NCBI GenBank assembly: GCA_963820925.1
Contig: CAWGBX010000005.1
Coordinates: 208,605-272,604, forward strand
Length of the DNA stretch: 64,000 bases
Source of the DNA: an uncultured Acidobacteriota bacterium
GTDB lineage: Bacteria; Acidobacteriota; Terriglobia; Terriglobales; Acidobacteriaceae
Direction: 5' to 3'
How positions within the stretch are numbered: position 1 is the stretch's first letter; every line of letters begins with the position of its first letter. Below are positions 14,888 to 63,988 of this stretch, piece after piece. The notes beneath the pieces are model-generated. The model worked only from the letters and a program-made list of their open reading frames with translations, was not told where the DNA came from and searched no databases. The position numbers and the translations under genes are program-made.

Positions 14888-14961
14888 ACGCTGCCGAGGC
14901 CGATGGCTCGGCCATCGACAACAACGCACCGAAGGTGCACTTCCGCGAGCCGCAAATCGAG

Positions 14962-15954: not shown

Positions 15955-15961
15955 AAACGCA

Positions 15962-17387: not shown

Positions 17388-17389
17388 CG

Positions 17390-19663: not shown

Positions 19664-19669
19664 GAGACT

Positions 19670-30986: not shown

Positions 30987-31114
30987 CTGGATGAAATATT
31001 ATCCGTTTTAACGACCATTGTCAAGACGGACGTTCTCCCTTTCCCGCACTTTATAGGTGTGCGTAAGATTTTCGAGCTGAGGATAGGAAACACGAGAAGA
31101 GTTTGAGTCTCGCG

Positions 31115-39825: not shown

Positions 39826-42800
39826 TGGCTAACAAAGAATCCAAGTCGCGGGTCCCGCCTTCGCGAGCGTTGGGTCTGGCCGGCCGCGTTGCGCATGCCT
39901 TTATCGATTCGAGACTGACACCTCTGGTGATCGTTGCCGCTTTACTCATTGGCGCTTTCAGCATTCTCAAAACTCCACGAGAAGAAGAGCCGCAGATCGT
40001 GGTGCCCATGCTCGACGTGTTCCTTCAGATGCCAGGTGCATCAGCGGAAGAAGTCGCGCAGCGTGTCAGCGTTCCGACTGAAAAGCTGCTGCGCGACGTA
40101 CCGGGCGTCGAGTATGTCTACTCCATCAGTCATCCAGGGCTCAGCATGCTGATGGTTCGCTTCTACGTCGGCACCAAAGAAGAAAATGCAATTGTGGAGA
40201 CCTACAATAAGCTCTACGCAAACTTCGATCGCATTCCGCCCGGCGTCTCGCAACCGATTATTAAGGTCCGCTCGATTGACGATGTACCCATTTTGGCTCT
40301 GACTTTGTGGGGAAAAGGCTACGACTCATACCATCTGCGGCGAATAGCAAGTGAACTGGAGAACTCACTCAAGCCACTCGATGGCGTTTCTGAGACGACG
40401 ATCATCGGAGGCGAGCCGAGGCAAGTACGAGTAGTACTCGATACGCAACGGCTCACAGCATACGGCCTCACACCGGGCGCGATCGTGGCACAACTCCAGA
40501 ACACGAATGTCCGCGGCCAAGCCGGAAGTTTCGCCCGGGACAATCGGCAGTTCCAGGTCGAGGCGGGTACTTTCTTTACAAGTCTCGAAGATCTGGACCA
40601 GGTCGTGGTAGGAGTTCACGCGGGATATCCGGTCTACCTGCGTGACGTAGCCGAGAAGCTCCAAGACGGTCCAGCAGAGCCGGATACTTATGTTTTATTT
40701 GCCAATGCTCGCGGTGGAGCAGAACAGAAGCCTGGCGCAGACTATCCCGCGGTCACCATCACGTTCTCGAAACGCAAAGGTACGAACGCCACTGATATCT
40801 CCCGACGGCTCCTGGATAATGTCAATGCGCTGCGCGGGTACATGCTTCCGAACGACCTGAACATTACCGTCACACGCAACTATGGCGAGACTGCAAAAGA
40901 TAAATCCGACGAACTCCTCAAGCACCTGCTGATCGCAACATTGTCGGTCACATTGCTGATTGCGCTGGCGCTGGGTTGGCGTGAATCGGGAGTCGTTCTG
41001 TTGGCGGTGCCTGTGACGCTGGCCCTGACTCTCGGCGTCTTCTACCTTTATGGGTACACGCTAAACCGGGTCACATTGTTCGCGCTCATCTTCTCAATCG
41101 GGATCCTGGTTGACGATGCCATCGTTGTGGTCGAGAACATTGCCCGACACTTCAGGTTACCGGAAAGCCGAGCACGATCCGTGATGGAAATCGTGGTTGA
41201 GGCGGTGGACGAAGTTGGGAACTCCACGATTCTCGCTACCTTTGCTGTGATCGGCGCCGTCTTGCCCAATGCTTTCGTGCGCGGACTGGCGGGCCCATAC
41301 ATGCGGCCGATCCCTGTGGGTGCGTCGGCAGCGATGTTGTTCTCGCTTGTTGTGGCCTTCATCGTTCTGCCGTGGGCGGCATCGAGACTGCTAACGAGAG
41401 GCAGAGGAATTGGCGGCCATTCAGGGCAACAGACCGAAAGCTGGACCACCCGCTTGTATCGTCGGATGATGAACCCGCTGATCCTTAGTACGTGTCGCCG
41501 CTGGATGTTTCTTGGAAGTGTGGGGGGCTTGCTGCTCGCCGCGATCGCGTTTGTCCCTTTGAAGTGGGTACGCCTCAAGATGCTGCCGTTCGACAACAAG
41601 AGTGAGTTTCAGGTCATCATTGACATGCCGGACGGCACGCCGCTGGAACAGACAACTCACGTTGCCCAGGCATTGGGACAATATTTGGGCAAGCAGCCTG
41701 AGGTCATGAATTATCAGATCTATGCGGGGACCTCCGGTCCTTACAACTTCAACGGCCTGGTGCGCCATTACTTCTTACGCAATCAGCCCAATCAAGCCGA
41801 CATTCAGGTGAATCTGCTTTCGCGGCACGACCGCAAGGCACAAAGCCACGAGATTGCGCGACGATTGCGGCCGGAGTTGGACAGGATTGCCCAGCCGTTT
41901 GGCGCGCGCATCAAGGTTGCCGAGGTTCCGCCGGGTCCACCCGTGTTGCAAACTCTGGTCGCGGAAGTTTATGGGCCGGACTACAAAGGCCAGATCGAGT
42001 TGGCCGCTCAGATCAAGAAGGTCTTTCAGCAGACGTCGGGCATCGTGGATGTGGACTGGTATGTCGAAGATCCGCAAACCAAGTACGACATGAAAGTGGA
42101 TCTAGAGAAGGCGGCGCTGCATGGCATCTCGCCTGCTGATGTCACGCGCACCCTGCAGCTGGGACTCGGTGGAACCAACGCCGGTTTGCTACACGATTCC
42201 CATTCCCGCGAAGACATCCCCATCGAGGTGCGGTTGGCGCGTCCGGATCGTTCGGGGATCGAGGACCTGGGCAATCTGAAGCTGCCCACCACTTCCGGTG
42301 GACAGATTGCTCTGCAGGAAGTAACGACCCTGCAGCAAACGACGATCGATACCAGTGTGTATCGCAAGAACCTGCAGCCGGTCGTCTACGTGACGGGAGA
42401 TGTAGCGGGCGGAGAAGAAAGCCCGGTGTACGCCATCATGAAGATGAGCGCCGCGATTGACAAAATCAAGTTGCCCGATGGCTATACAGTGAAGCAATAC
42501 AAGGGCACCACCATGCCCGAGCGCACCGACCGCTTCTCGATGAAGTGGGATGGTGAGTGGCAGATCACGGTGGAAGTCTTCCGTGATTTGGGATTGGCTT
42601 TCGCGGCGGTGCTTGTCCTGATCTACGTGCTGGTCGTGGGCTGGTTCCGCTCGTTCGTCACCCCGCTCGTCATCATGGCGCCGATTCCGCTGACCCTAGT
42701 TGGCATCCTCCCGGCTCACGCGCTGATGGGGGCTTTCTTCACCGCGACCTCAATGATCGGCTTCATCGCGGGCGCCGGAATTGTCGTGCGAAACGCAATC

Positions 42801-43133
42801 ATTCTTGTCGACTTCATTGAATTACGTCGTTCGCAGGGTATGTCATTGGAGGCGGCCGTCGTTGACGCGGGGGCGGTGCGCTTCCGTCCGATGCTGTTGA
42901 CGGCAGCTGCGGTCGTCGTGGGAGCGAGTGTGATCCTGTTCGATCCGATCTTTCAGGGTTTGGCCCTTTCACTGATGGCCGGAGAATTGGCGTCTACCGT
43001 TCTGTCAAGAATGGCAGTGCCGGTTCTCTATTATCTTTCCCAGAGGGGACACCCTGCTGCATCAGAGCGCCTAGCGATTAGCCCTGTTCTCTGCCGCTTA
43101 GAGGTCCTGGGCCGCATGGCCAGTAAGGCATAA
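39825..43133 (+). CDS. Efflux RND transporter permease (AcrB/CzcA superfamily)
   Basis: 1102 aa, 12-TM with two large periplasmic loops; ATG overlaps adaptor stop. Confidence 0.9.
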
Positions 43134-45389: not shown

Positions 45390-46339
45390 GAATATCGTTC
45401 CTTCCTTATGGGATCAGCACGATCTTTCCCAATGCGCTTGTTTTCATCACGCTGATGAGCTTCGGGCGCTGAGGCCAGCGGCATTTTCAACTCCAACGAC
45501 AGGCTTTAGAGACCCGCGCCGCTGTGCGGCGTTGGGCAAGGGATGTCTCTGGCTCAATTCGAAACAATTCACGCGCTTACGCGCAGCGCTCGCTTTCGGA
45601 AAACGTTGAAAAAGTTGGTGAAATCGAGCGGTATCTAATTGCGAAGGACACAAAAAGGACACAGCGCACGTTGAGGCACCAGTCCGATTTTCAACTGATC
45701 CTTTTCTTCTGTGGATACCACCGTGAAAGAACGGCCCATACACGACGTTAAAGGACTTACAAGAGTCGGATGACCTCTAAGTCGTTGGAAATTTCCCGGT
45801 AGCGGGAGCGGAACCGTAGCGTAATCCGCAGTGCGGCGCAGCCAAAGATGAGCGTCGAATCTGAGCACTGTCACAACCGCTGGTATCGCGAGTTTCGGCA
45901 AAACTGAAGAGATTAGGAATGCTCGTCCGCTCGTGGCGGTTCCTGCCTGAAGACATTGTGATCCGGGCGACGCTGATTGCATCAGCTATTTGTGCTGGTG
46001 CCGAAGGCGATCCTTTGGGGTCGCAGGAAATTACTTCTTGCGTCGCGACGGAACGGTGTCTGGAGTGACAGGGCAACAATGAGACGTAGCTGATTGATAT
46101 CAAACGGTGTCGGCGGACGTCGTTTGGTAGCAAGTGGAGCGGCATGAGCGAAAATCACAATCGTTAAAGGACTTTGCAACCTCTGCCGATAGCACCGCTA
46201 TGTGGCTTTCCTATCCTAACAGCAAATTGGATTCTTCCCGAGTTCAGGAGTGAGATGCATCCAGAGTCAGGACACTTCCCGGGAAGAAGATCAAGCCCTT
46301 ATCGTCTCGCCTTGCTGCGAATCGTCCCCCCAGTCGCTG

Positions 46340-47120
46340 ATGAGGGCCGTGGTTGGAGGGGTGTTTTCTTACGGATTAAGCTTCAGCAAGCTTCTCACCT
46401 CGGGAGCGGTGTTGGCCCTGCTGCTGGTGCAGACGACGCCTTGTAACGCCGCCTTAAGCGCCAGTTCCACCGACCAATCTCAAGCTATTGCGCTTGACAG
46501 CCGAGTCCGCGCCGTCATTGCAGATCCGACTACAGGACCGCTTCCCAATAGTTCCACAAAGTCACAAACATCACCACCTCCAACCTATCGCGAGCCGCGG
46601 TTTTCCGTCGGAGTTCGCGGTGGACTGAGTCTCGGTGAGCATGACCTGAAACTCACCACCAATCGGTTCCCGAACTACTACGCGGGAGCACATGGACAGT
46701 TTCGCATGGGCGAGTCGCATTTCCTGAGACCGGTGGGTGAATGGTGGAACTTCCGTACCGGCGTGCAAAGATTTCAAAACCCCACCCAGATTCAGACAAT
46801 CAACACTCAGGTTCGGGCCATGGTGGCTGGCGGCGAATATCTCTATCTCCTGGGCGGGCCATTCAAGAGAACCTCTCTCGGCTTCGGTGGATATGTCGGC
46901 GCGGTGGTCCGTGGATAGTGTGAATACGGTGACATTCTTCGGGTTGGGCACCGTCCAGGCTTCTGGAAACAGCCACTGGACGCGACCCGCAGGAAGCGCG
47001 ATCGCTACCTGTCGCCTCTCGCATCGGTTCGAACTGATGGGCCGATGGGTCTACAGCACCTACGGTTTTGAACGGGTCCCGGTCAGCGTCGTCACGTTCG
47101 GGGCAGGGTGGAACTTTTAA
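46340..47120 (+). pseudogene. Outer-membrane beta-barrel protein (signal peptide; C-terminal ...FGAGWNF), frame broken near 46900
   Basis: Track ORFs 46250-46918 and 46737-47120 overlap in different frames; the second ends with the typical OMP C-terminal aromatic (F) and stops 1 nt before the giant gene ATG. Confidence 0.5.
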
Positions 47121-50100
47121 ATGGCGCGGGGACAGCCAAATGTGCAGCAATCCGAATGTCAGGCCTCACCGCGAAATCTATTCATCGCGTTTGGTAGTGC
47201 GACGTGCGTTTTGTTTGCGCTGCTGCTCACTGGATGCGCTGCTTTCCAAAGCGGAGACCACACCGACAAGAATAACTATGCGCTGAAGATCACGCCCGCG
47301 ACCCCGGTTGTGACGGTGGGGCGCACTATTCATCTCACCGCAAGCAGTCCGTGGGGCGGTGGCGCGCACTGGTCTGTACTTCCAGCCTCTCTAGGAGCCA
47401 TCGATCAAAACGGCAACTTCACCGCCTCCAACACGCCCGGCTCCGGCACGATCATCGCGATGTGGGACCGGGACGTTCGCTATACCGCCACTGCAACAAC
47501 GACGGTTGTCGCGGTGCCCCAGGCAAGCATCACGGTGGTAGCACCGGTTGGCAACACGCCGGGAAACGCATCCGTTCCTCCCAGCCTGATTCCGCCTACG
47601 TGTGGACCATCCAGGGCGGCACCATCCTTTCCGGCCAGGGCACGTCGCAGATTCAATTTGCCGATTCCGGCCCCGGTGCCACTCTAGTGAACTGTACCGT
47701 GACGGACGGCGCCGGCGACACCACTACCAATTCGGCCACGGTTCCTGCCACAATCGAGTACAACCCAACTTCTTACACTCTTATTCGCGGCGCCGACATT
47801 GGGAACATTGCGCCCACACGTGCTGACGCTAACGCCCTGATGTGGCGAGTATCGCCTGATTTGCCTGTGGGCCTCGTGCTCAATGCAAGTACGGGCGTGA
47901 TCAGCGGCGCTCCCGCATCGCCGGCGCCAGCTGCCGCTTACACGGTGACAGCCAGCAACACAGGCGGTGACAGGTCACGCCGTGGCGCTCGCGATTACCG
48001 TGATCGATTCGGCGCCAATCTTTTCCTACATCCCCAATGCCTACATCGGGACGGTTAACGTTCCGGTCACACCCATATCGCCGACGCTGACCCACGGCAC
48101 GGTGACTTTGTGGAAAATCAGTCCTTCTTTGCCCGCCGGCCTGGTGTTTGATTCCGCGACGGGCCAGGTCTCAGGCGCGTCTCGCGTCCTCAGTCCGAAT
48201 ACGACATACACGGTGACAGCGAGCAACAATTGGGGATCGGTCACTGCGGAACCGCTGTCCATTGACGTCATCGACGTTCCTCCGGCGATTCACTATGCTC
48301 CATCTGCCTTCACTTTGACGAGGGGGACCGCTGTATCGCCGATAGTTCCCGCCAACTCTGGTGGTCCAGCAACTTCCTGGTCGATCGCGCCACCACTCAC
48401 CGCAGGGTTGACCTTCAACCTAGCGACCGGCTCGATCTCTGGAAATCCAAGCACGATCACGGCCGCAGTTTCGTATTCCGTCACGGCAACGAACACCGGG
48501 GGAACAAGCCCTCCAACCAGCCTCAATATCAACGTGGTTGACATCGTTCCCGCGATTCAGTATCCCTCGGCAAACTTTGCCATCACCATCAACTCAGCAT
48601 TGCTACCATTCTTGCCCACAAACTCTGGCGGGCCGGCGACGAGTTGGAGCATTCAGCCGGCGATTCCCTCCGGCCTCAGCTTTGATCCCGCAACCGGAGC
48701 CATCAGCGGAGTCCCGGATACAGCAACCCCGGCTGCTCTCTACATCGTCACGGCGACGAACACTGGCGGCACGAGCCAGCCCTTTACTATCACATTGGCC
48801 GTCGTAGTTCGGCCGACTTCGTCGATCAGCGCGTCTTCGACCAATCCGCTGAGGGGAGCAACGGTCGATCTGACGCCAACGTTTGCCAACGCCGTCTCGG
48901 CCACGGTGGGGACAACGCAAGGCGGCAGCGACATCTCCAGTTCGCCGACGACCGGAACAGCAATTCCAACCGCCGCCATTACCGCAACCAAAACCTACTG
49001 GCTGCGGGCGACGAACGGCGCGGGAGATTTCGTAGACGGTTCCGTTACGGTGACGCCGCAGACCGTTACAATTAATGGCATCAGCCCGGCTGCACCTACC
49101 CGCACAGTCAACAGCACGAGTAGCTTCACCACAACGGCCACAGGCGGAGTAACCAACGGCATCTCATGGTCCGCCAACGCCGGCTCCATGAACGCCGCCA
49201 CCGGAGCGTGGACTGCTCCCGGCAGCGCGGGCAATGTCATCATCACCGCCACCTCGAATGATGACAGCGGCAAAACCGCCACGACCCTGGTGAACGTCGT
49301 GGCAGCCGCGAGTGCATCGATCAGCGCCTCCTCGACCAATCCGCTCTATGGCGCGACGATCAACCTGACACCGACATTCAGCAACGCGGTCTCTGCCTCG
49401 GTCGGAACGACGCTGGGCGGCAATGACATCTCCAGTTCGCCCACAAGCGGCACCGCAATCCCCACCGCAGCCATCACCTCACCCCGGACTTACTGGCTGC
49501 GCGCGACCAATGCTGCCGGCGACTACATTGACAGCTCCGTCACAGTGACGCCAAAGACAGTCGTGGTGGGCGCAATTACTCCAGGCGCGCCCACACGCAC
49601 CGTCAACAGCTCGACCACCTTCAGCGCCAGCGCCACGGACGGTGTGACCAATAGCGTTACCTGGTCAGCCAGCGCGGGCACCATGAATGCCAGCACCGGG
49701 GTCTGGACTGCTCCCGCCACTGCGGGCAATGTCACCATCACGGCGACATCGAGTGATGACGGCAGCAAAACAGCGACGACCACCGCAAGCGTGGTCCTGG
49801 CCAGCACAGCCTCGATCACCGCCTCGTCAACTAGTCCGCCCCACGGCGCAACGGTTAATCTGGCGCCAACGTTTGGCAACGCAGTTTCAGCTTCGGTAGG
49901 GACAACGCAGGGCGGAAGCGACATTTCCGCGTCCCCGACCAGCGGAACGCAGATCCCGACCTCAGCCATCGTATCCGTCAAAACCTACTGGCTACGCGCC
50001 ACCAACGCTGCCGGAGACTACACCGACAGTTCCGTCACGGTCACACCGCAGACGGTCGTAGTGAATGCCATCAGCCCGGCCGCGCCCACACGCACCGTCG

Positions 50101-53100
50101 ACAGCGCAACCACCTTCACAACAACGGCCACAGGCGGAGTAACCAACGGCATCGCATGGTCCGCCACCGCTGGGACCATGAACGCTGCCACCGGAGCCTG
50201 GACTGCTCCCGGCAGCGCCGGCAATGTGACCATCACCGCCACCTCGAACGACGATAGCAGCAAGAACGCGACGACCCTAGTCAACGTCGTGGCAGCCGCG
50301 AGTGCGTCGATCACAGCTTCCTCCACCAATCCCTTGTATGGCGCGGCGATTAGCCTGACGCCGACATTCGGCAACGCAGTCTCGGCCTCGGTCGGTACCA
50401 CGCAAGGCAGTAGCGACATCTCCAGTTCACCCACGAGCGGCACGCCGATCCCTACTGCGGCGATCACGTCATTTAGGATCTACTGGCTGCGGGCGACAAA
50501 CGCGGCCGGGGACCATGCCGACAGCTCCGTCTCTGTTACGCCGCAGACCGTGGTGGTAAACGCAATTACTCCAGCCGCGCCCACACGCACCGTCAACAGC
50601 TCAACCACTTTCGCCACCACCGCCACGGGCGGCGTGACCAATGCCGTTACGTGGTCGGCAAGTGCAGGATCGATGAACGCCAGCACCGGCGACTGGACCG
50701 CTCCCGCCGCCGGCAATGTCACCATCACGGCAACATCGAGTGATGACAGCGGCAAAACGGCGACGACCACGGTTAGCGTGGTCCTGGCCAGCACCGCCTC
50801 GATCACTGCCTCGTCAACTGGCCCGCTCTATGGCGCAACGGTCAACCTCACTCCGACTTTCTCCAATGCTGTCTCAGCCGCAGTAGGCACTACTCAGGGC
50901 GGCGGCAATATCTCCAGTTCGCCTACGACCGGAACAGCAATTCCAACCTCCGCCATTACCACAACCAAAACCTATTGGCTGCGGGCTACGAACGCTGCCG
51001 GGGATTACGCCGACAGCTCCGTTACGGTCACACCGCAGACGGTCGTTGTGAATGGCATCAGCCCGGCCTCTCCCACGAAGACGGTCAACAGCTTGACTAC
51101 CTTCACCACCACGGCCACAGGCGGCGTGACCAATAACATCACGTGGTCAGCGAGCGCGGGAACGATGAACGCCGGTACCGGCGCCTGGACCGCTCCCGCC
51201 ACAGCCGGCAACGTCACCATTACCGCCACGTCGGCCGACGACAACACGAAGTCAGCCACGACATCAGCGACCGTCGTCCTGGCTCCGACTGCCTCACTTG
51301 CCGCGTCCTCGGCAAATCCGCTCTACGGGGCAACGATCACCCTCACGCCAACATTTGCCAACGCCGTCTCGGCATCGGTCGGAACAACGCAGGGCGACAA
51401 CGACATCTCCGGGTCACCCACCAGCGGCGCCGCAATCCCTACAGCAGCAATCACGTCAGTCAAGACCTACTGGCTGCGAGCCACGAACGCGGCCGGGGAT
51501 CACGCCGACAGCTCCGTCGTGGTTACGCCGCAGACCGTGGTGGTCAACGCAGTCGGTCCTTCGGCGCCCACACGCACCGTCAACACGACGACCACCTTCT
51601 CCACCACCGCCATGGGCGGAGTGACCAACGGCATCAACTGGTCGGCCAACGCAGGCACTATGAATGCCAGCACCGGAACCTGGACTGCTCCTGCCACGGC
51701 CGGCAATGTGACCATCACCGCAACATCGCAGGACAATCCTGCAAAGACGGCGACGACCACTGTAACTGTTGTTCTGGCCAGTACCGCTTCTATTTCGGCA
51801 TCCTCAACTACGCCTCTGCGGGGCGCGACGGTCAATCTGACGCCAACCTTTGCGAACGCAGTCTCGGCCTCGGTGGGCACCACGCAGGGCGGAAACGATA
51901 TCTCGAACTCACCCACCAGTGGAACACAGATTACGACTGCGGCCATTACCACAACCAAGACTTACTGGCTACGCGCTACCAATGCCGCGGGAGACTTCGT
52001 AGATGGTTCCGTCACGGTGACGCCGCAAACGGTGGCAGTAAATGCCATCATCCCGGCCTCGCCCACGAAGACGGTCAACACAGTGACAACCTTCACTACC
52101 ACGGCCACCGGGGGCGTAACCAATGGCATCACATGGTCGGCGAGCGCGGGAGCGATGAACGCCAGTACCGGCGCGTGGACTGCTCCCGCCATCGCTGGCA
52201 ACGTCACCATCACTGCCACCGCGAATGACGACAACAGCAAAACGGTCACAACTACGGTCACCGTGGTCCTGGCCGCTACCGCGTCGATCAACGCGTCGAC
52301 CACGACGCCGCTGTACGGCGCGACGGTCAACCTGACTCCGACTTTCTCCAATTCAGTCTCGGCCGCAGTGGGCACCGCGCAGGGCGGCAGCGATGTCTCG
52401 AACTCGCCCACGAGTGGAACGCAAATTACAACTGCAGCCCTCACTGCCTCAACCACTTTCTGGCTGCGCGCCACCAACGCGGCGGGAGACTTTGCGGACA
52501 ATTCTGTCGCGGTGGTGCCGAAGACGGTCACCATTGGCGCCATCACCAAGAGCGCCAGCAACGTCAGCGTAGGGTACACGGCGACGGCGAAAGCCACCGT
52601 TTCCAATGCCGTGGACACAACGGTTGACTGGACAGCCACCTGCGGTTCGTTCAGCCTAACCAATACGGCAAGCGGTGTGAATACAACATGGACAGCGCCG
52701 GGCAGCCCCGGATCCTGCACGCTGACCGCAAAAAGTCATGCCAAGCCGTCTGTCAGCATCACTACCACCATCACGGTGATTGCGCTTCCGATTGCCACCA
52801 GCCTTACGCCGAGCACGACCAGCCCGCTCTACGGCGCTACCGTCAGCCTTCTTCCTCTGTTCAACGCATTCGCGGGCGGAAACGGCAGTGTCAACAACGG
52901 TGTGGGAACGGTCACCAACAACGTTGCCAAATCGTCACTGGCAATCACCACGGCGACGACGTTCACTCTGACGGTCACCAACGCTGGGGGACAGCAGGCA
53001 ACGATAGATTCTGCGCTGGTCACGCCGCAAACAGTCGTGGTAAATCCGCTCAGCCCGGCTTCGCCCACCCGCACCGTGAACAGTTTGACCACCTTCACTA

Positions 53101-56100
53101 CGACGACCAGCGGCGGACACTTGGGAACAGTCACCTGGACTGCAAGTGGAGGCGCGATCAATGGCAGCACGGGAACATGGACCGCGCCCGGCACCTCGGG
53201 CAGCGTCACGATTACCGCGACTTCGAACGACGACGCCAGCAAGAAGGCCACCACCACAGTCACCGTGGTGCTCGCGCCCACGGCTTCGATCACTGCTTCA
53301 ACCAGCGCGCCGCTTTACGGCGCGACGGTGAATCTGACGCCGACATTCGCCAACTCTGTCTCGGCCTCGGTCGGCACCACGCAAGGCGGCAGCGACATCT
53401 CCAATTCACCGACGAGCGGCACGCCGATCACCACCAGTGCAATCACTTCGGCCATTACTTACTACCTGCGCGCAACCAATGCGGCGGGAACCTACGCAGA
53501 TAGTTCAGTCGTGGTGACACCGCAGACGGTGGCGATCGGGTCCATCACCAAGGGGCAGAGCACGGTCAGCGTGGGCTATACCACGACCGCCCAAGCAACC
53601 GTCACGAATGCGGTTGATACAGCCGTCAATTGGAGTTCCAGTTGCGGCTCTTTCAGTCCCGGCAGCACCGCGAGCGGAGTGAATACCACATGGACCGCAC
53701 CGGTATCGGCGCAGACGTGCACGCTTACCGCAACCAGCAACGCCAATCCGGCCCTGACCATTAATGCGACCATTACGATTGTCGCTTTGCCGGTTGCGAC
53801 CGGCCTCTCGCCGAGCACTACTAGTCCGCTATTCGGCGCCCCCATCAATTTGACGCCACAGTTCTCGAATGGCACCGGCGCGGTCGACCAAGGCATCGGG
53901 GCGGTCACCAATAACGTCAGCAAGTCTTCTTCGGCAATCACTACACCGGTAACATTCACTCTGACGGTTACAAACGCGGCCGGTCAGACCACCACTGCAA
54001 CCTCGGGCTTAATCACGCCGCAGACTGTCGCGGTGACCGTGCCCTCGCCCGCCGCAGGTTATGTAACGACCAGCGGCACGCAGGCTTTCACCGCCTCTGC
54101 GCAAAATGCGGTCAACACCGCCGTCACCTGGAGCGCGGCCGGGGCAGGCTCATGGTCTGGCGCTACCTGGACCGCGCCATCAACTCTAGGCGTATACACA
54201 ATCACGGCAACCTCGGTTTCGGATCCCACAAAGTCAACTTCCACCAGCGTGAACGTCGTCATTGCGCCGGTCATCAGTTCTTTCACCGCGGCCGTTCTTC
54301 TTGTCAGCGAGAACTTTGGAACCACTTTGACGGGAGTTTTCACCAACGGAGGCGGAAACGCATTCGTCGGCACGAGCGGAGCTGGCAGTTCGGATATCAC
54401 AAATTCTGCCCAGTCGAACGTCGGTGTTCCTACCGGCAATCTCGCGGCGACCACCACATTCACTCTCACCGTCTATAACCTGGCAGGAAGCAGCACCTCG
54501 GCAACGCTTACAGTTCCGGTGGTCGTGGGTTCTTCCCTGGCGACAATTTCTGCTCTCCGGCGCGCGATATAACCACACCAGTACCTTGCTGCCGGATGGC
54601 ACCGACTTGATCATCGGCGGGCAGAGCGATAGTGGGTCGCTCAACACATCCGAGATTTACGACCCGGTGGCGGTAGCTGTTTCCGATGGCGGCACGATGC
54701 TCTCGGCGCGCTACAACCACACAGCTACTCTCATTACCCAATGGCACGGTCCTGAGTCGCCGGTGGCAACAACGGCGGGACCATTGCCGCCAGCGAAGTC
54801 TGGGATACCGGCGGCTTTGCCGCGACCGGTGCACTCAAGACGCCCCGCGAAAAGCACACAGCCACACTGCTGCAAAACGGACTGGTGCTGATCGTCGGAG
54901 GACTGAACGGAAGTTCTCCCGTAGTCTCGGCGGAACTGTACAGCCCGTTGACGGAGACATTCACCTACACGGCGGGCAATCTGAACACGGCTCGCTACAG
55001 CCACACCGCTACGCTACTCGCCAGCGGTCAAGTGCTCATTGCGGGCGGATACAACGGAAGCGTACCTCTGGCCAGCGCGGAGATCTATAACCCGGCCACG
55101 GGCGCATTCACGGTGGTTGGAAGCATGTCTACCGCCCGGCAGCGTCACGCCGCGGTCTTGCTGAATGACGGACGCGTCGCCATGGTTGGCGGCAAAGGCG
55201 CAAGCGCTCCACTGGCCAGCGCGGAAATCTTCAACTCTTCGAACAATACATTCAGCGCGACGGGCGCGATGGCCGATGCGCGCGACGGCCTGACTGCAAC
55301 GCTGACCACCAGCGGCAAAGTGATTGCGGCAGGCGGAGTGAATGCATCTGGCATTCCCATCGATGGCGCCGAGATGTTTGACCCGACCGCGGGAACGTTC
55401 AGCCTTACCGCGCTACTGTCCACTGCGCGCTCGCAACACACGGCAACGCTTCTACAGGACGGGCAAGTGCTGATCGCGGGAGGGTTGGTGCAGAGTGGCG
55501 CAACGGCGATCCAGGAACTGTTCGACCCGCAAGATGGTCTAACCCCCACGGTTCCGAACTCGACCATCACCGCTCCCGTAGGCGCGATCACGGCACAGAC
55601 CGGGCTCGCAGGAAGCGTACCGTCGCAGACGCACATTCAATATTTCTGGATGATCACCGGCGGCGCCATCAGCGCTGGTCAGGGAACGAGGTCTATCACA
55701 TTTTCAATGCCGGCCTCGGGCACCGCCACACTCGACGCGCTGGTGGTAAGCGATCGCATTATCCCCTCGCACACGCAGTTTGTGGTAACGCCGGTTCCGA
55801 TCATCTCCAGCTTTTCGGCGCAGAATCCCACCGTCACAGTAGGTGGAAGCACGACGCTGAATTGGACGGTGCAAGGTGCTACCAGTCTCTTCATTGACCA
55901 GGGTGTTGGGATGGTAGCTGGAACTTCTGTACCCGTCACGGTGGGCTCTTTGGGTACGACAACATATACGCTGACGGCCACGAATGCGGGCGGCAGTGCA
56001 ACCGCCACGGCGCTAATTCTTGCTGTGCCGCCTCCGATCGCGACATCCCTGACCGCCGCGGCGAGCACGGTGCCTGTGGGCGGCAACACCAACCTCACAC

Positions 56101-59100
56101 CGATCTTCCCCCAGGGCACGGGATCGATTTCTCCGGGCATTGGGGCAGTTTCGAGCGGCCCCGCCTATCCGACTGCGGCCATTTCTACGCCCACCACCTT
56201 TACTCTTACGGTGACCAATGCGGCCGGAGACACGGCGCAGCAATCCACCACAGTTGGATTGCAACCGGTCTCAGTCAGAATCTCGGGGCCGACCTATGTC
56301 ACCGAAGGCCACACCGCGACCTACTCTGCAACGGTTTCCGGATCGGTGAACACGGCCGTTACGTGGCACGCTTCGGCGGGAAGTTTCAGCGGCGCGAATT
56401 TTACCGCTCCCACCGGACCTCCGTACGATACGACCCAGACCGCCGTTACCATTACCGCGACATCGGTTAACGGTGGCACGGCGTCGAACTTTACCGTGCA
56501 GGTGGTACCGCTGCCCGTGATCACCAGCTTCGTGTCGAATCCGGTGACCGCAAACTACGGAGGCTCGACCACGATTACGCCGGTCTTCTCTCTGGGATCT
56601 GGCCAGATCGTCGGACTGGGTTCGGTGACCAGCGGCCAGGGAGTTTCAAGCGGCGGGCTGACCACGTCGAAGACATTTACGTTAACCGTGACCGATGTTG
56701 CCGGTGATTCTGTTTCACAGAATCTGAACGTCAATCAGAGCGCGGTTTCAGTCAGCACTCCGACACCCACGGCGAGCACCGTCTCGGTTGGCGACCAGGT
56801 GCATTTCACAGCCACCACGAACGGTTCCGCAAACAGCGCCGTCACCTGGAGCGCCACCGGCGGCAGCTTCTCCGGCAGCAACTGGACTGCACCATCAGCA
56901 GGCACGTACACCATTACCGCCAGTTCGGTTTCGCCATTAGGTTACTCCGCGAACACAACCACCACCGTGGTTAATTTGCCGGTAATCTCATCGTTCACGG
57001 CATCCCCAGTGGCACTTTCTGCGGGAGATAGCTCGAACCTGCAGGCCAATTATTCCGGGGGCACAGCAACCGTCATGCCGGGAAATACTTCGCCGGTGAG
57101 CGGTGTTCCCTTCTCCACCGGCTCGCTGGCCTCCACCACTACCTACACGCTAACCGTGGTGAGCGCAGCCGGAAAGAGCACCAACAAAACCGTCACCGTG
57201 AATGCGGTCCAGGGGAGGACGAATTCCGGGTCGAGCCTGAGTACCAACCGTGTAGGACACAGCGTGACGCTGCTGCCCGATGGCAGAGTCCTGATCGCAG
57301 GCGGAAGTTCGACGGCGAGCGCGGATATTTCCGATGTGACAGGTCAGAACATCAGCGCCATCGGTTCGGCAATGCAATCGGTTCGCTACTCTCACACCGC
57401 AACTTTGCTGGCGAACGGCCAGGTTCTGATCGCAGGCGGAGCAGACATCAACGGGACGGCGCAGAACACGGCGGAGCTGTTCAATCCATCGAACAATACG
57501 TTCACCTCAACCGGGTCGATGTCGAAGGCCCGGCAAAAACACTTTGCCGCGCTAATGGATGATGGAAGAGTGCTGCTCGCCGGAGGCGTCGATGACAATG
57601 GCACGGCGCTCTCGAGCGCCGAGATTTATGATCCCGTGGCAGGAACTTTCTCCGTCGCGCCGAGCCTGGCGGCAGCAAGCGAATCGGGCAGCACAACCCT
57701 GCTCGAAAACGGCACGGTGCTCGTGGCCGGAGGAGACAACACCAGCGCGGCCAGCGCCTCCGCTCAGACCTTCAACGGCGCAAGCTTCAGCGGCACGCTA
57801 TCCATGGCGGATGCGCGCTCGCAGTCCACGGCAACCCTGCTGCAAGGCGGGAACGTCATTTTCGCCGGCGGCACCGACCTGACCAATGCGCTGAACACAG
57901 TCGAAACATTCTCTGGCGGCAGTTTCTCCCAAAACCCGACAGCCATGTCGGAGGCGCGTTACGGTCACTCGGCGAATCTGCTCGCCAGCGGCCTGGTGCT
58001 TTTGACCGGTGGAAGTTCCGACGGCTCTACGCCACTGTCGGACGCGATGCTCTTCGATCCGTTCGATGCCTCGACTCCCTATTGGTCAACCAGCAGTCTC
58101 AACACCGCTCGCTTCGAGCCGGCATCAACCATTCTGCGCAATGGACATGTGCTGATCGCGGGCGGCAGCTCCGATCCCGCTAATATCTCTGCCAACGCTT
58201 TAAGCACGACTGAGAACTATGATCCGCAGGATAGTCTCACTCCGGTTCTGCCGAACGCAACACTCACCGCCCCTGCCGCCGCCGTTAATGGCGCATCTGG
58301 GCTGACCGCGTCCGTTCCAACGGGCCAGACCAACGTCCTCTATATATGGTCGTTGACTAACGGAACGATCACCGCCGGCTTGAACACTCGCTCCATCACC
58401 TTCACCGTGAACACAACTCCCGCGGTCGTGAATGTCCTGGTGATCAGCGACCGTGAAGTCCCGGTGCAGAGCTCGGCGACGATTGCTTCGGCCAATCCGG
58501 GGCCGTCGATTGCTTCTTTCACGGCGACTCCCTCCACCAACACAACTGGAGTGACAACGACTCTCGCCTGGTCCGCCAGCGGCGCTGCCGATATGACACT
58601 CACCATTAATCATGGTGTGGGCGATGTTACCGGCTCCAGTTCCACCCCGGTCACCACGCCGGCCAGCACCACCACTTACACGCTGACCGCGACCGACAGC
58701 AACGGCACCACCAACAAGACCGTAACTCTGACCGCGGTTCCCATGCCGGTTGCGACCAGTCTCACCGCCGCCGTGAACCCGGTGCTCAAGGGAAGCTCCA
58801 CCACCATCGTTCCGGTTTTCACCACCAACGGATCGGCGTCCATCAATAACGGAATCGGAACCGTCACCAGCGGAGTTGCCTACCCCACGGGCGTGCTGAA
58901 CACCGCCACCACATTCACGCTGACCGCGACCAACACGGTGGGCACCAGCGCCACCGCCAACGCGACCATCAACGTCATGCCGGTCGTGGTGACCTCGATT
59001 ACCGGGCCATCCAACGTCACGGTCAATAGCACCGAAGCGCAGTTCACTGCCACCGTAACGGGCGCGGTAAATACCGCAGTCACCTGGTCCGTCTCCGCGG

Positions 59101-62100
59101 GTTCCATTAATGCAGCCGGACAACTGACTGCGCCGTCCACGCCGCAAGACATCACGGTGACGGCTACTTCAATTGCAGATCCTGCGCAGTCCCATCAAGT
59201 GACGGTGCACGTGGTGCCGGTGGCGATCGCGCTCAGTATCACGGCAGCTGCCAACCCTGTGCTCTATGGAAGCTCGACCACAGTCACGCCTGTCTTCTCG
59301 CAAGGCAGCGGCGTCATTGATCAGGGGATTGGAAACGTGACCACGGGAGTGGCATACACAACCGGCACGATCACGGGCAGCAAGAGCTTTACGCTCACCG
59401 TGACCAACGTCTCCGGTGACAGCGCCGATGCAACGGTCACAGTGCTGCCGGCAGATGTGGTGGTTAGCGGCATCACCGGTCCCGCCTCAGGCAAGGTGAC
59501 GCAAGGCCACACAGCCACTTTCAGCGCCACCGTCAGCGGCGCGGTCAACACGTCTCTCACCTGGAGTTCGGGCGGCGCCGGCTCGTGGTCCGGCGCGACC
59601 TGGACGGCGCCCGGAACTCCCGGCAACTACACCATCACCGCGACTGCCGTAAATGGTTCAACCAACACTCTGCCAATCACGGTCGTTGCCGCTCCGGCGA
59701 TTGCATCATTCACCGCGACGCCGCCAGGCATCAACAAGAACCAGAGTTCTACTCTCACCGCGACCTTCTCCGGCGCGGGCACTGGCAGCAATTCCAGCGG
59801 CGTCGTCACTCCCGGCAATCTCACGCTGGCCAGCGGTTCAGGTGGCGTGAGCACCGGCGCGCTCACCGCATCGCAGACTTACACGCTGACGGTGACGAAT
59901 GACGCGGGTGACACTGCCACGGCGCAAACGACGGTGCAAGTTTTCCTCGGCGAGTTCAGCGCGGTTTCGAATAGCCTGGCAACGCCTCGCAATCTGCCCA
60001 CGGCAACTTTACGTGCAGACGGCAATGTGGTGGTCGCCGGCGGCGGAAGCGGAAGCGCGAGTGTTGACCTCTTCAACAGTACAAATCTTTCGTTCTCTTC
60101 AGCGACTCCACAGCTGACCGGGCGAAACGGACAGACGGCGACACTGTTGCCCAATGGCCTCATCCTCATCGCCGGGGGTTCGAACGGCTCGACTGCGCTT
60201 GCGACAGCGGAACTTTACAATCCGGCTGACGGCAGTTTCACCGCAACTGGATCGCTCGCACATGCGCGGCAGAATCATCGCGCGATCCTGCTCGACTCAG
60301 GCCAGGTGCTGCTTGTCGGAGGCACTGGCCTTGCGAGCGCCGAACTTTACAATCCTGCAACCAGGACCTTCTCGTCCACAAATTCCATGGCATGGGTGCG
60401 TGACTCCGCGACCGTTTCGCGTCTGCTCGATGGCCGCATTCTCGTGGCCGGGGGAAGCAACGGCAGCACGCGTCTGGCTACGGCCGAAATCTACGATCCT
60501 TCCACAAATTCGTTTTCTACAGCCGCTACCATGCTCGCGGCGCGCGCGCTGCACACGGCCACGACGCTCACTAGCGGACAGATTCTGATCGCCGGCGGCA
60601 CCGGCTCCACGGGAAGTGGAAGCGCAGAGATTTTCAATCCTTCGCTCATGCGCTTCGTAAGCACAGGAAATATGATCCAGCCGCGTCAGGAACACGTTGC
60701 CGCATTGCTGGCGGGTGGAATGGTGCTGGTGGCGGGTGGAAACAATGGCACGTCTTCCAGCGCCAGCGACCAGGCTGAACTCTTTGATCCGGCAGGCGGC
60801 GCCTTCCAGAAGTCCGATTTTATGAGTTCGGTTGGTTCGCCCACCACCGGAGCCGCGGGTACGATTCTCCCCAGCGGGCAAGTGCTCGTGACCGGCGGCA
60901 CCAGCGATGGCACGAATGCTGTCGCAGGATCGGAGTTGTACACGCCGACTGACGGAATCACCGCAGCCGCGGCGAATGCAGCGATCACGGTTGCGGCGTA
61001 CGTCTCTCAGGGAGCCACAGGCATCTCCGCACACGTGACCGCCGCAGCCGGCGCGCGCTACATCTGGATGGTCACCGGCGGCACTCTGGTCTCCGGACAA
61101 GGCACCGCCAGCATCACCTTTAATATGCCGGCGACCGGCAATGCCACCCTGGATGTTTTGATCATCACGAGCACACTTGTTCCTTCTCATGGACTGTCGG
61201 TCGTAGTGGGAGAACCGGCGCCGGTAGTCAGCAGTTTCACGGCGGCGCCAAGTCCGGTTGCTTATGGCAGCCCGACCACACTCACGCCAGTATTCAGCAA
61301 CGCGACGGCGAGCGCCGTCATCGGCACCGGCGCCGCCGGCAGTTCCGATGTAACCCCCGCGGCGGTCAGCGGCACTCCAGTCGTGGCAGGCTCAATTACC
61401 AGCGCAACCCAGTACCGGCTCACAGTCACAAATCGCGCTGGTGTAAGTCTCAATCAGACAGTCACAGTCGGCGTGCAGAGCGTGATCGTCTCCGCAATCA
61501 GCCCCGCCAATCCGGTCCTATCTGCGGAGGGCACGCAGAGCTTCAGCTCTGCTGTCAGTCAGGCTGCCAACACCGCAATCGTATGGAGCGCCAACGGCGG
61601 CGTGATGAATGCCGCGACGGGAGCATGGACCGCCCCACCGACGCCCGGGCCCTACACCATTACCGCCACTGCGGCGGCGGATGGCATTACTTCATCGTCG
61701 ACGACGGCGACCGTAGTTGCATTGCCAGTCGTCCAGAGCTTCACTGCCTCGGCGGCCACGGTGAACTATGGGCAGGTATCTTCGTTAACTGCGGTGTTCA
61801 CTGGGGGCGTGGGAAATCAGGCATCGATAGGGACGAGCGGCACGGGTTCATCGCAGCTGACGTCCACTGCGACCAGCAGCAACGCCGTCTCCACCGGACC
61901 GTTAGTCGTCGATACCACTTTTACCCTTACCGTCACAAATGCGGCTGGGTCATCTACCACCGCGACAGTTCAGGTCTCGGTGAACCAGCCGTTCTCATCG
62001 ACTGTCTCGATGAACTATGCCCGATTGGGTCAAACGACCACCGTCCTTCCAGGCGGCGCTGTCCTGGTCGCTGGCGGAACGGGAGGTACCGACCCGGCTG

Positions 62101-62639
62101 AACTCTATAGCAACGGCAGCTTCGCTACGACTGTGGGACCGATGACGGCGGCGCGCGCTTATCACACTGCCACGCTGCTCGCCAGCGGACAAGTGCTTTT
62201 CGCCGGCGGTGTGGATGCCTCCGGGAACGCCCAAAACACAGCCGAGCTTTACGATCCAACTCTCGGCACTTTCACTGCGACCGCGGGAAATATGGTCCGT
62301 GCGCGTCAAGATCAGGTTGCGGCTCTCCTGCCGGATGGAACCGTCCTGATCGCTGGCGGCTACAACGCAACCAATCAGCAACTCTCTGATGCCGAGATTT
62401 TCAATCCCATTACCGGCACATTCGACAGCAACGCCAACATCTGTTGCCACGGCGCGCCAGTTTGCCACAGCGACCGCACTGCAAGACGGCCGCGTTCTGA
62501 TCGCAGGCGGATTCAACGGCACAACGCATCGGCAACTGCGCAGATTTTTTGCCAATGGCAGCTTCGTCACCCCCGAGATGCCAAAAGATCCATTTCATAC
62601 GACACAAACTTGTTTAGTGAATCCGTGAATTTACAGTGA
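47121..62639 (+). pseudogene. Giant (~5,100 aa if contiguous) cell-surface lipoprotein: lipobox, tandem Ig-like (He_PIG/BIG-like) repeats, then Kelch/beta-propeller-like repeat region; split by 8 or more single-nt frame disruptions
   Basis: Lipobox LLLTGCAAF at start. Track ORFs 47121-47687, 47351-48058, 47967-54572, 54424-54891, 54885-62639 and 62389-62628 carry consecutive pieces of the same repeat protein in different frames. Removing two A residues at ~54727 and ~54757 gives contiguous ARYNHTATLLPNGTVLVAGGNNGGTIAASEVWDTGGF. Confidence 0.7.
48830..53330 (+). repeat. About nine tandem, highly similar ~486-498-bp (about 163-aa) coding repeats inside the giant gene (unit ...ASSTNPLYGATVNLTPTF.NAVSASVGTTQGG.DISSSPTSGT.IPTAAIT..KTYWLRATNAAGD..DSSVTVTPQTVVVN.I.PA.PTRTVNS.TTF.TTATGGVTN.I.WSA.AG.MNA.TG.WTAPA.AGNVTITATS.DD..KTATT.V.VVLA)
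   Basis: Landmark tcga-tca(c/g)cgc recurs at 48836, 49321, 49816, 50311, 50803, 51294, ~51790, 52288, 53288; minus-strand shadow ORFs repeat with the same period. Confidence 0.8.
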
Positions 62640-63013
62640 AACACACATTTTTTCGAGACAGGACGATATTCCCACCGTGAAAAACACGTCTCCCATAAAA
62701 GCCGCAGAGTGCTGGCGAGAACGGCAAGACTCTAACGGGCAGTGTTCTAGACCGATTTAAGATCTTTGCAGGAAACCGATCTCTCTGCCCCGCGGGGTAC
62801 ATATACTGTTTGCGAAAGTCATCTTCGGGAGCAATAAGGAGTCTCAAGGATCGTTAGGTTATGAGCCCACAAATACTATTATTTTCAACAACTTACAAGA
62901 CGCGGGTGGCCCCTTAAAAACCTTGCAAGAAGCGCTAAGGAATCCTTATTGGACAGTTAAAGGACAGTGAACAACCGCACCGTGAACCTTGAGGCTGCAG
63001 ATCGAAAATTGTT

Positions 63014-63988
63014 TTAGCGTTCGTCTACGGGCGAAGCTTTCGGCACCGCCGGCAAGGGCTCGCCCGCCAGTCGTTTTTTCACCAGCCCGGCGAGGAAGTC
63101 CGCGAAGGGCACGATATCCTCGCCGACACTCGCTTTTTCGAGAGCGTTCACGTAGGCGTTGCGGTCGGTTACCGGAATGACCGTCCACGGGTATCCGCCC
63201 GACGCCATCATGGTGTTCATCAGGAAGCGCCCGACGCGGCCGTTGCCATCCATATAAGGATGGATGTAGACGAAGATGAAGTGCCCGAGCACCACGCGGA
63301 CGGCCGGATGCGGCTCTTCGCGCAGCAGGTCGAAGAACGCCGGCATGGCGTCCCTCACCGCGTCCCGGTTCAGCGGCACGTGCATCGACTTGCGGATATA
63401 GACCTGGCCGTTGCGATAGCCCGCGAGATCGGCGGGCTTCAGCAGGCCGACGGTGACGCTCGGCGCGAACAGCTCTCGATACCACGTGCCGTGGTCCGCG
63501 TCCGCGACCTCTCCCGGATTTTCGCCCTTCAGAATTTTGCCGAGGCTTTTCTGCACGGCCTGAAAGGCCTGCCAGTAGCCCCGCGCCGCCATCGCGTTTC
63601 GCTGATCGCGGTCGCCCTCGTCGGCTTCCGGGTTCCACCTACCCCCACGGACGCGCTCGATAAGGTCCGGCGTCACCCGGTAGCCCTCGATCGACAGCGA
63701 ATGGTAGGCGTCCGTGACGTAGGCGTCGTTGACGCGCTTGAGGTACGCCTCGATGTTGCGCGGCGGGCCCGGCGCTTTCGGGAAGCGTTCGATGACCGGC
63801 TCGCGCATTTTCTGCCAGAGCAGCCGCAGCCTGTTTACGTAAGGAGAGGTTTCGCGGGCTCCGATGACCAGGGACGGCTTGTCCGTGAAGGGATCGTTCT
63901 CCCGCACGGCGTAGTCGGCCGCCGCCATCGTCTTCACGATATCGTCCGCGATGCGGTCGAGGCCGATGTTGCGGAAGGCCCCGGCCAA
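63014..63988 (-). CDS. Fic/DOC family protein (AMPylase-type fold)
   Basis: Fic motif HPYMDGNGRVGRF (HPFx[DE]GNGR); 324 aa; the overlapping Arg-rich ORF 62946-63638 is a shadow frame. Confidence 0.8.
   Translation of the reverse strand: MAGAFRNIGLDRIADDIVKTMAAADYAVRENDPFTDKPSLVIGARETSPYVNRLRLLWQKMREPVIERFPKAPGPPRNIEAYLKRVNDAYVTDAYHSLSIEGYRVTPDLIERVRGGRWNPEADEGDRDQRNAMAARGYWQAFQAVQKSLGKILKGENPGEVADADHGTWYRELFAPSVTVGLLKPADLAGYRNGQVYIRKSMHVPLNRDAVRDAMPAFFDLLREEPHPAVRVVLGHFIFVYIHPYMDGNGRVGRFLMNTMMASGGYPWTVIPVTDRNAYVNALEKASVGEDIVPFADFLAGLVKKRLAGEPLPAVPKASPVDER

Follow-up and report, generated by a model that had tools for sequence, protein, structure and literature searches.

How a giant lipoprotein gene that is broken into several open reading frames (ORFs) should be read, and how its product might be held at the bacterial surface, are the questions raised by a stretch of DNA from an uncultured soil Acidobacteriota bacterium (contig CAWGBX010000005.1, positions 208,605 to 272,604; the whole stretch of 64,000 nucleotides (nt) is hereafter referred to as the window). 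Positions 46250–62628 of the window are interpreted, with moderate confidence, as a two-gene cassette comprising a small eight-stranded β-barrel and a giant lipoprotein, which together would form an outer-membrane-anchored fiber and in which the single-base insertions and deletions (indels) are more likely to be errors. The giant lipoprotein is encoded by one gene, which is fragmented in this assembly. The part of the locus that looks new is the pairing of the barrel with a conserved N-terminal region of the lipoprotein, here termed the handle; the giant gene itself is an ordinary member of a widespread kind: species-representative genomes contain at least 424 Kelch/Ig relatives, and metagenome contigs at least 419.

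Gene Structure and Relatives

The ORF listing and its translation place the coding region of the giant gene on the plus strand, from an ATG at 47121 to a stop codon at 62626–62628. As assembled (47121–62628), the gene is a chain of ORFs at 47121–47687, 47351–48058, 47967–54572, 54424–54891, and 54885–62639 (188, 235, 2,201, 155, and 2,584 amino acids (aa), respectively). Translation by frame indicates that the protein carries on from one frame into another at every ORF boundary, and eight single-base edits produce one frame of 5,167 codons with 0 stops, the conceptual product (5,167 aa) being 3′-truncated relative to that of the closest relative. The proposal of a first-pass annotation of this DNA, one giant lipoprotein gene split into ORFs, is thus borne out by these edits and by relatives that read through, and the relatives also support the Acidobacteriota-type lineage that it had suggested.

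The closest fetched relative (locus L001, from the Acidobacteriota metagenome-assembled genome (MAG) MFD06435.bin.1.31) is collinear with window positions 46183–62579 at 87.5% DNA identity, and its giant gene encodes 2,132 and 3,928 aa parted by one private frameshift at L001:8887. In L002, the corresponding products are 4,238 and about 1,300 aa, again with a private frameshift. The giant gene is a single ORF of 5,347 aa in L081 (GCA_030012885.1) and encodes at least 5,008 aa in L082. Furthermore, L090, an independent contig of a Joint Genome Institute (JGI) metagenome with 79% DNA identity, has an unbroken frame of 2,406 codons, a length limited by the contig. A protein search with the giant protein N-terminus returned only short or fragmentary proteins and no giant ones, and no relevant work was found in a literature search on giant Kelch lipoproteins of Acidobacteria.

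The giant genes of the window and L001 have a ratio of non-synonymous to synonymous substitution rates (dN/dS) of 0.14 at a dS of 0.30. With L090 as outgroup, 101 synonymous and 29 non-synonymous changes are assigned to the window branch (N/S 0.29) and 111 and 19 to the L001 branch, and the difference between the branches is not significant. Judging by this dN/dS and the branch counts, purifying selection has acted on the giant gene over virtually its whole history and is still apparent on the window branch.

The Upstream Barrel Gene and Its Pairing With the Handle

The partner gene (46250–47120, plus strand) is split near 46897 into ORFs 46250–46918 and 46737–47120, and its TAA stop codon is immediately followed by the giant gene's ATG. 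A hidden Markov model (HMM) of the barrel family matches both fragments (E 1e-50 and 3e-38). The L001 counterpart of 46250–47120 is a 306-aa ORF, whose conserved part is the C-terminal ~175 aa. In the AlphaFold model of the orthologue P0001, residues 135–305 have a predicted local distance difference test (pLDDT) score >90 and form eight strands, and Foldseek matches this barrel model to the OmpA transmembrane domain, Ail, and OmpX (9fzd, 3qra, 1qj9; E 1e-8 to 2e-6; template modeling (TM) score, normalized by target, 0.61–0.66). The C-terminus reads ...GAGW[SRK]F, with an aromatic last residue, as in eight-stranded outer membrane proteins. Neither Pfam nor NCBIfam contains a match to the barrel, and no precomputed Pfam assignment exists for 17 homologues; a weak match to OMP_b-brl (PF13505) occurs only on the distant member P0038. 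By sequence models, the barrel belongs to no curated outer membrane protein family.

Compared with the OmpA N-domain, OmpX, Ail, NspA, and OmpW, the barrel has the same predicted fold (Foldseek probability 1.0, E 1e-8 to 1e-5) but shares only 12–15% identity, forms its own small family, and is coupled in every case to a lipoprotein gene, a property not known of OmpX or OmpA. The family comprises 17 clusters in an index of 5.8 billion proteins and 76 representatives among 1.84 billion, 59 of them at E ≤ 1e-10. The distant match P0083 (E 4e-6) was rejected as a member, being one of an ordinary pair of OMP_b-brl paralogues; as P0060 (E 1e-19) is a member and P0083 is not, the family boundary lies between E 1e-19 and 4e-6. 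The structural model and these searches suggest that the barrel is a previously undescribed OmpX/OmpA-type outer-membrane barrel lacking a curated model.

The pairing is strict. Among the first 84 fetched loci and the window, the barrel HMM detects the family only in the eight places with a giant gene of the lipoprotein type; the 77 other Kelch/Ig loci give no match. In all eight (the window, L001, L002, and L080–L084), the barrel gene runs directly up to, or into, the start of the giant gene. The Kelch/Ig secreted proteins of Acidobacteriota, Verrucomicrobiota, and Chloroflexota MAGs share the propeller type and the Ig-like runs, whereas those examined have ordinary Sec signal peptides in addition to lacking a barrel gene. 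Furthermore, directly after the genes of the distant barrel members P0038, P0052, P0040, and P0060, at a spacing of −13 to +21 nt, comes a lipoprotein gene with the same handle, which consists of a lipobox, 'GD', the motif 'SSPWGGGA.W.VLPA...G.FTA....W..DVRYTA', and usually a PKD-like module. The handles of lipoproteins with other cargo (L085, L086, and L088) share 33–36% identity with that of the window, and the residues Cys39, G45, P59, G79, V86, P88, G92, F100, D118, R120, and Y121 are invariant.

The cargo carried behind the handle is varied: the Ig/Kelch part in the giant-gene loci, a lactonase-type propeller in L085, and an FGE-sulfatase domain in L088. In L086, the handle stands alone (173 aa) and the next gene encodes a collagen-like repeat protein; the contig of L087 ends just past the lipobox. 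A search starting from the handle returned mostly lipoproteins of ~170–195 aa; for the two of them that were looked up, P0102 and P0104 (L170–L173), the gene directly upstream belongs to the barrel family (E 1e-48 and 1e-52), and the downstream gene encodes a large protein that is either collagen-like or unannotated. In total, barrel and handle lipoprotein are paired in 12 of the 12 distinct systems examined.

A three-gene variant of the arrangement can be recognized in L086 (713–4363) and L170–L173 (~4392–10552), in the order of barrel, handle-only lipoprotein (173–190 aa), and large protein. The large protein contains collagen-like GXY repeats (Pfam Collagen and PTL_trimer), and in L170 and L171 the variant lies beside IS66 transposase and ParB/RepB genes.

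These observations lead to a tentative proposal, which we hold at well under even confidence, that barrel and handle constitute a previously undescribed, dedicated two-component module of Acidobacteriota for outer-membrane anchoring or surface display, in which the private eight-stranded barrel would bind the Big_2-like/PKD-like handle, with varied cargo having been attached to the handle in the course of evolution.

Domain Architecture of the Giant Lipoprotein

The corrected protein consists of a lipobox signal peptide, the handle with its Big_2-like and PKD-like modules, four He_PIG domains, ~40 Ig-like domains, and four Kelch propellers, giving a total of about 45 Ig-like domains; all features described below are on the plus strand. 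The type II lipoprotein signal peptide (47121–47237, residues 1–39), as read from the sequence, ends in the lipobox LLLTG-C, and the N-terminus reads ...SPRNLFIAFGSATCVLFALLL-TG-C39, consistent with the pattern [LVI][ASTVI][GAS]-C closing a hydrophobic h-region that is preceded by a positively charged n-region. The codon of Cys39 is at 47235–47237. The lipobox (LLLTGC) had already been noted in the first-pass annotation and is conserved: L-[TSA]-G-C is kept across 7 related loci, Cys39 is invariant in 9 aligned homologues with a preceding pattern of L-[TSA]-G-C or A-C, and the residue at +2 after the lipobox Cys is Ala, Ser, or Gly, never Asp.

The handle (47286–47765) comprises a Big_2-like module at 47286–47528 (residues 56–136) and a PKD_6-like module at ~47529–47765 (residues ~137–215), which carries 'YVWTIQGGTILSGQGTSQIQF'; the profile matches are to the B-type HMM (E 1.3e-4) and PKD_6 (E 5e-4), and a −1 frameshift at 47580 lies within the handle. 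Four He_PIG-type Ig-like domains of ~88 aa each follow at 47766–48824 (residues 216–565), delimited by the repeat pattern in the corrected protein and including a +1 frameshift at 47974. The Pfam He_PIG match (PF05345) at 47276–48055 scores 30.2 bits against a gathering cutoff of 24, and the family is also present in orthologues.

The next segment (48825–52286, residues 569–1722) consists of seven tandem 495-bp (165-aa) units, each with one A-type and one B-type Ig-like domain, and is continued at 52287–54530 (residues 1723–2470) by a divergent part with the order [A B′ A′ B] twice and a final A′, according to an HMM domain map. AlphaFold predicts the unit at 49320–49814 with a pLDDT of 96.2 as an all-β structure of two domains. 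No match to this unit exists in Pfam or NCBIfam; in Foldseek, it matches cadherin EC1-2, SraP, LigA (8gyr), titin, and GhpA with a probability of 1.0. The two β-sandwiches and these matches therefore confirm the term 'Ig-like' by fold.

Residues ~2478–5150 form four super-repeats, each comprising a Kelch propeller, a PKD_6-like module, and three to six Ig-like domains. The propellers start at about residues 2478, 3365, 4280, and 4955. Propeller 1 (54553–55523) has seven blades counted in the corrected protein within Pfam Kelch families, as do propeller 2 (57216–58223), which also matches solved structures, and propeller 3 (59961–60938); of propeller 4 (61986–62581), four blades are present. 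The 25 blades are thus grouped 7+7+7+4, with ~330 aa per propeller, and motif counting suggests that the propellers are seven-bladed. The first PKD_6-like linker (55536–55793) matches PKD_6 at E 1.5e-6 over two stretches and contains the recurrent motif, and further copies are at ~58236–58493 and 60951–61223. The linker modules described in the first-pass annotation were indeed found, as 'Y.W..GG.I..GQGT.SITF' in four occurrences with a weak PKD_6 match.

The Kelch part is strongly supported by Pfam (Kelch_4, 262.6 bits; Kelch_6, 228.8; Kelch_1, 228.3; cutoffs 20–25; E 1e-69 to 1e-79 for Kelch_1/4/6) and by solved Kelch proteins in the PDB (E down to 6e-24). The Ig-like and Kelch content reported earlier is real, by Pfam for Kelch and He_PIG and by predicted fold for the Ig-like domains. 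The extent given as ~2,700 aa of Kelch-like repeats does not hold, as there are four discrete propellers split by Ig-like runs of about 260–480 aa, and the Kelch share is only about 1,200 aa.

Age of the Tandem Array

Tandem Repeats Finder (TRF) reports a period of 495, 7.4 copies, and 71% matches at 48822–52491, and the motif 'YWLRATN' occurs nine times between 48996 and 53460. The ~490-bp tandem Ig-like array described previously therefore exists, but its copies are not nearly identical: the seven full units share 69–82% DNA identity and 71–84% protein identity, and their longest common exact word is 33 nt. The identities alternate between odd and even units, which indicates a 990-bp higher-order unit.

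Units 4–7 are 82–91% identical to their positional orthologues in L001 and about 70–77% identical to any paralogue. Because these units are closer to their orthologues than to their paralogues, the array is old and mostly stable. Units 1–2 are the exception and match L001 units 3–4 best (83–85%), which suggests one two-unit (990-bp) duplication or conversion around the species split. On this sequence comparison, the units are mostly older than the split from the nearest relative, and the recent expansion or concerted evolution proposed in the first-pass annotation is unsupported and mostly contradicted. Its concern that the array might have collapsed during assembly likewise carries little weight, since units only 70–82% identical make such a collapse unlikely.

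Frameshifts and 3′ Truncation

Compared with L001, the giant gene has single-nucleotide differences at 47580 (−1), 47974 (+1), 54551, 54736, and 54755 (+1 each), 62424 (+1), 62532 (−1), and 62548 (+1), which are isolated and uncompensated; the last three lie in propeller 4. The barrel gene has a 1-nt insertion near 46897, and two extra sites (46218 and 46358) in its poorly conserved 5′ part may be alignment noise. The cluster at 54551–54755 (54551, ~54736, and ~54755) is located at the start of propeller 1 and coincides with the ORF breaks 54572/54424–54891/54885. Comparison with L090 identified the same three extra window bases at 54551, 54734, and 54754; as L001 and L090 both read through, these indels are private to the window.

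At the 3′ end, homology with L001 stops at 62581 within blade 5 of propeller 4, and L001 has a further ~2.7 kb (905 aa), which encode the rest of propeller 4, more Ig-like domains, and a fifth propeller. Elsewhere in the window, this missing tail finds only paralogous matches below 50% identity. The giant gene is followed by an AT-richer junction of ~430 bp (62582–63013), without similarity to any fetched locus, and by a Fic-domain gene on the minus strand (63014–63988) with a weak, sub-threshold match to 'mobile mystery protein B'. The sequence from 62582 on may reflect a rearrangement, an insertion, or a misjoin, and the truncation may be real. This truncation, the frameshifted barrel gene, and the division of the Kelch region into discrete propellers had all escaped the first-pass annotation.

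Two explanations of the broken frames have to be weighed. The first, which we favor by a modest margin of confidence, is that the indels are consensus errors of long-read metagenome assembly rather than real mutations. The MFD MAGs were assembled from Nanopore reads only, with one round of Medaka polishing (PMC12313526). Each Nanopore MAG copy of the giant gene has its own private frameshift (L001:8887 and that of L002), and short-read contigs, recognized by their k141 names, are intact. Furthermore, L080 (GCA_030012865.1) and L081 represent the same organism (99.3% identical over 20.5 kb) and differ by seven 1-nt indels, of which four insertions break the giant gene in L080 only; similar non-homopolymer 1-nt insertions between the two also occur in housekeeping genes, such as a protease gene. 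After indel correction, no in-frame nonsense codon is left in 5,167 codons.

At least two other genes of the window are split as well, judging by Pfam profile coverage (a codon-usage frame plot was too noisy for this purpose). The CoA-enzyme activase gene (20749–24313, minus strand; two BcrAD_BadFG and DUF2229) is present as two overlapping ORFs, and the break falls within its second ATPase domain at ~22880, suggesting a frameshift elsewhere than in the cassette. An AraC-family regulator gene (35978–36875, minus strand) is split at ~36420 into a Cupin_6 ORF (36408–36875) and an HTH_18 ORF (35978–36439) with a 32-nt overlap, probably by another frameshift. A third case may be encapsulin: a DyP-type peroxidase is joined to an encapsulin shell protein (Linocin_M18) in one 666-aa ORF (31008–33008, minus strand), in which profile positions 1–168 of 253 are matched, and the ORF could be either a natural cargo–shell fusion or the result of further frameshifting.

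The second explanation, less probable than the first yet the strongest of the alternatives, is that both genes of the cassette lost their function recently and are real pseudogenes, with genuine frameshifts and truncation, and that neither fiber nor barrel is made; a possible cause would be, for example, the rearrangement or insertion by which the Fic-gene region arrived here. Several observations weigh on this side and against an intact fiber. The cassette has 9–11 indels in 16.4 kb, ~10 times the window background (2–3 in 46 kb), affecting both partner genes, and these are strongly clustered at 46.9, 47.6–48.0, 54.55–54.76, and 62.42–62.55 kb, contrary to the prediction of a uniform error process. 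Most of them are insertions outside homopolymers. The truncation in mid-blade adjoins unrelated AT-rich DNA and the Fic gene, in accordance with recent real decay, as is a slight excess of window-specific amino-acid changes over L001-specific ones (67 vs 48, relative-rate chi-square 3.1; non-synonymous changes 29 vs 19), which is not significant. The genomic context of the cassette also differs in each genome, as expected of dispensable, strain-variable surface genes.

Two further points weaken the fiber interpretation independently of decay. Of the Pfam families named in the first-pass annotation, He_PIG and Kelch exceed their thresholds, whereas Big_2 (PF02368) has no match at E ≤ 0.01 on any window segment, precomputed PF02368 being found only on two distant handle homologues, and the family matches are weak in this regard. 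In addition, an eight-stranded barrel lacks a lumen able to translocate a polypeptide, which makes the role of the barrel a guess.

Against inactivation stand the zero nonsense codons in the corrected frame, a window-branch N/S not significantly unlike that of L001, and the distribution of frameshifts among Nanopore and short-read-named copies and in the housekeeping genes of L080/L081. Bacterial mutation is usually biased toward deletions; the insertions here outnumber deletions by about 7–9 to 2, the opposite of this bias.

Genomic Context of the Cassette

The flanks of L001 and L002 have no similarity to the window. In L083 (351–1882), a single metagenome contig, the cassette adjoins the conjugation genes VirB3 and TrbC and an SRAP gene. 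As the flanks differ in every genome examined, the cassette may be mobile or located in variable regions; among the signs of a mobile element, neither tRNAs nor convincing terminal repeats were found at its borders. The 13-nt sequence CGTTAAAGGACTT occurs in exact copies at 45746–45758 and 46162–46174, 416 bp apart, in non-coding DNA just upstream of the cassette, and is absent from every fetched locus.

Proposed Mechanism and Comparison With Known Systems

Returning to the fiber interpretation, what is shown comprises the gene structure, the domain folds, the conserved pairing, and the restriction of the indels to the window; from these features we infer lipidation, localization, contact between barrel and handle, and a binding function. 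The giant lipoprotein would be exported by Sec, lipidated at Cys39, and sent to the outer membrane, where the conserved N-terminal handle and the co-expressed barrel would hold or display it. The remainder would form a long rod of ~45 Ig-like domains with four to five seven-bladed Kelch propellers as ligand-binding nodes, the rod giving reach and the propellers, together with the rod, giving binding. The architecture thus suggests an outer-membrane-anchored adhesive or binding fiber, and the role in adhesion or aggregation assigned to the protein in the first-pass annotation is plausible.

The nearest functional analogues are the leptospiral Lig lipoproteins and the giant Ig-like adhesins. LigA and LigB are outer-surface adhesins in which an N-terminal lipobox is likewise followed by tandem Big_2-type Ig-like domains, and LigA (8gyr) ranks high among the structures matched by the 165-aa unit. 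Lig proteins comprise about 1,200–1,900 aa and have no Kelch propellers, PKD-like linkers, or dedicated barrel gene, whereas intact relatives of the giant lipoprotein exceed 5,000 aa and Pfam Big_2 is not significant here. The RTX adhesins LapA, MpIBP, and SiiE and the Aureispira grappling-hook protein GhpA, all from Gram-negative bacteria, are similar in being surface rods several thousand residues long that are built of Ig-like domains and carry modules for ligand binding; fragments of GhpA also match the unit structurally. RTX adhesins and GhpA are exported by a type I secretion system (T1SS), through a C-terminal RTX signal and with retention in a TolC-like pore, or by a type IX secretion system (T9SS). 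The giant lipoprotein instead has a lipobox, and RTX and T9SS C-terminal domains were not detected in a Pfam scan; for a T1SS RTX adhesin in particular, there is no RTX-type Pfam match, and the L001 C-terminus is a propeller with a PKD-like module.

Instead of anchoring the lipoprotein passively, the barrel could be a dedicated secretion pore or surface-flipping helper, functionally comparable to Slam/type XI secretion (T11SS) or type V translocators. The strict pairing, the translational coupling, and the conserved handle on varied cargo resemble a translocator–substrate gene arrangement, but this alternative is unlikely, as the barrel has only ~175 aa and eight strands, resembles OmpA-TM, OmpX, and Ail, none of which forms an open channel, and shows no POTRA, TPR, or DUF560 features and no Pfam match. 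More specifically, two-partner secretion (type Vb) employs a 16-stranded Omp85 TpsB with POTRA domains and an exoprotein that begins with a TPS domain; here, the barrel comprises only ~175 aa in eight strands, and the giant N-terminus has a lipobox and no Pfam match. In inverse autotransporters (type Ve, intimin/invasin), a 12-stranded N-terminal barrel and its Ig-like passenger share one polypeptide; here, the eight-stranded barrel is encoded by a gene of its own. A Slam/T11SS assignment is not supported either, the partner having only eight strands and no Pfam match.

LptD–LptE, RcsF–OmpA/C/F, and Slam–TbpB-type pairs resemble the mechanism proposed for the cassette in concept, a lipoprotein depending on an outer-membrane barrel for its placement or retention, and the genes of Slam and its substrate are adjacent, as in the cassette. 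The LptD barrel is 26-stranded, Slam combines a 14-stranded DUF560 barrel with TPR repeats, and RcsF threads through general porins; an eight-stranded dedicated partner is not known among these pairs. Pfam and cluster look-ups revealed no sequence relation between the barrel and the LptD, Slam, or RcsF partners.

Catalysis by the propellers, which would make the protein a surface-tethered multi-enzyme of the radical copper oxidase (galactose oxidase or GlxA) type instead of a binding fiber, is very improbable. Weak matches to Glyoxal_oxid_N, to the NCBIfam GlxA model (NF052501), and to galactose oxidase chains (E ~1e-8) point in this direction; however, the GlxA match reaches 48 bits, far under the 800-bit cutoff, so that membership is not indicated, the matches span only one or two generic Kelch blades, and the best solved matches are non-catalytic Kelch proteins. 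Finally, that the large ORFs are separate genes with their own starts, namely an Ig-repeat protein (47967–54572) and a Kelch/Ig protein (54885–62639), is an arrangement that the first-pass annotation had named as one that would refute its reading and for which GTG-start ORFs can be drawn mechanically, but it can practically be dismissed, since the frame continues across each boundary once a single base is removed, the boundaries being private 1-nt indels, domains such as Kelch blades 1–3 span them, and L001, L090, L081, and L082 read through the same positions, with single ORFs in relatives.

Neighboring Genes

The remainder of the window contains a [NiFe]-hydrogenase locus (1060–20697), with genes for the small subunit (5676–6761) and large subunit (6808–8604), a NifU-like gene, DUF5947, DUF6084, HycI protease, HypD/E/F, and a CobW/HypB-type GTPase. 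A second small-subunit-like gene (1060–2163) adjoins genes for a PAS histidine kinase and a LuxR-type response regulator (2187–4479); this arrangement (1060–4479) resembles an H2-sensing regulatory hydrogenase, with no partner large subunit visible. A cytochrome P460 family gene (84–896) is intact and unrelated to the cassette. The same is true of the genes for an HlyD-type adaptor and an AcrB-type pump (38701–43133); considered as parts of a T1SS, they were rejected because they represent a resistance-nodulation-division (RND) efflux pair and, in relatives, show no synteny with the cassette.

Perspective

Consensus errors in long-read MAGs shred genes of this kind into "hypothetical proteins", and counts of giant genes and pseudogenes in catalogues are therefore unreliable. 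Furthermore, the barrel and the handle define two domain families without a curated model. Soil Acidobacteriota commonly have giant surface proteins built of repeats, and the present locus is without signatures of type I, type V, or type IX secretion. The strict coupling of barrel and handle, whatever the cargo, provides a concrete and testable hypothesis of surface anchoring for this poorly studied phylum.

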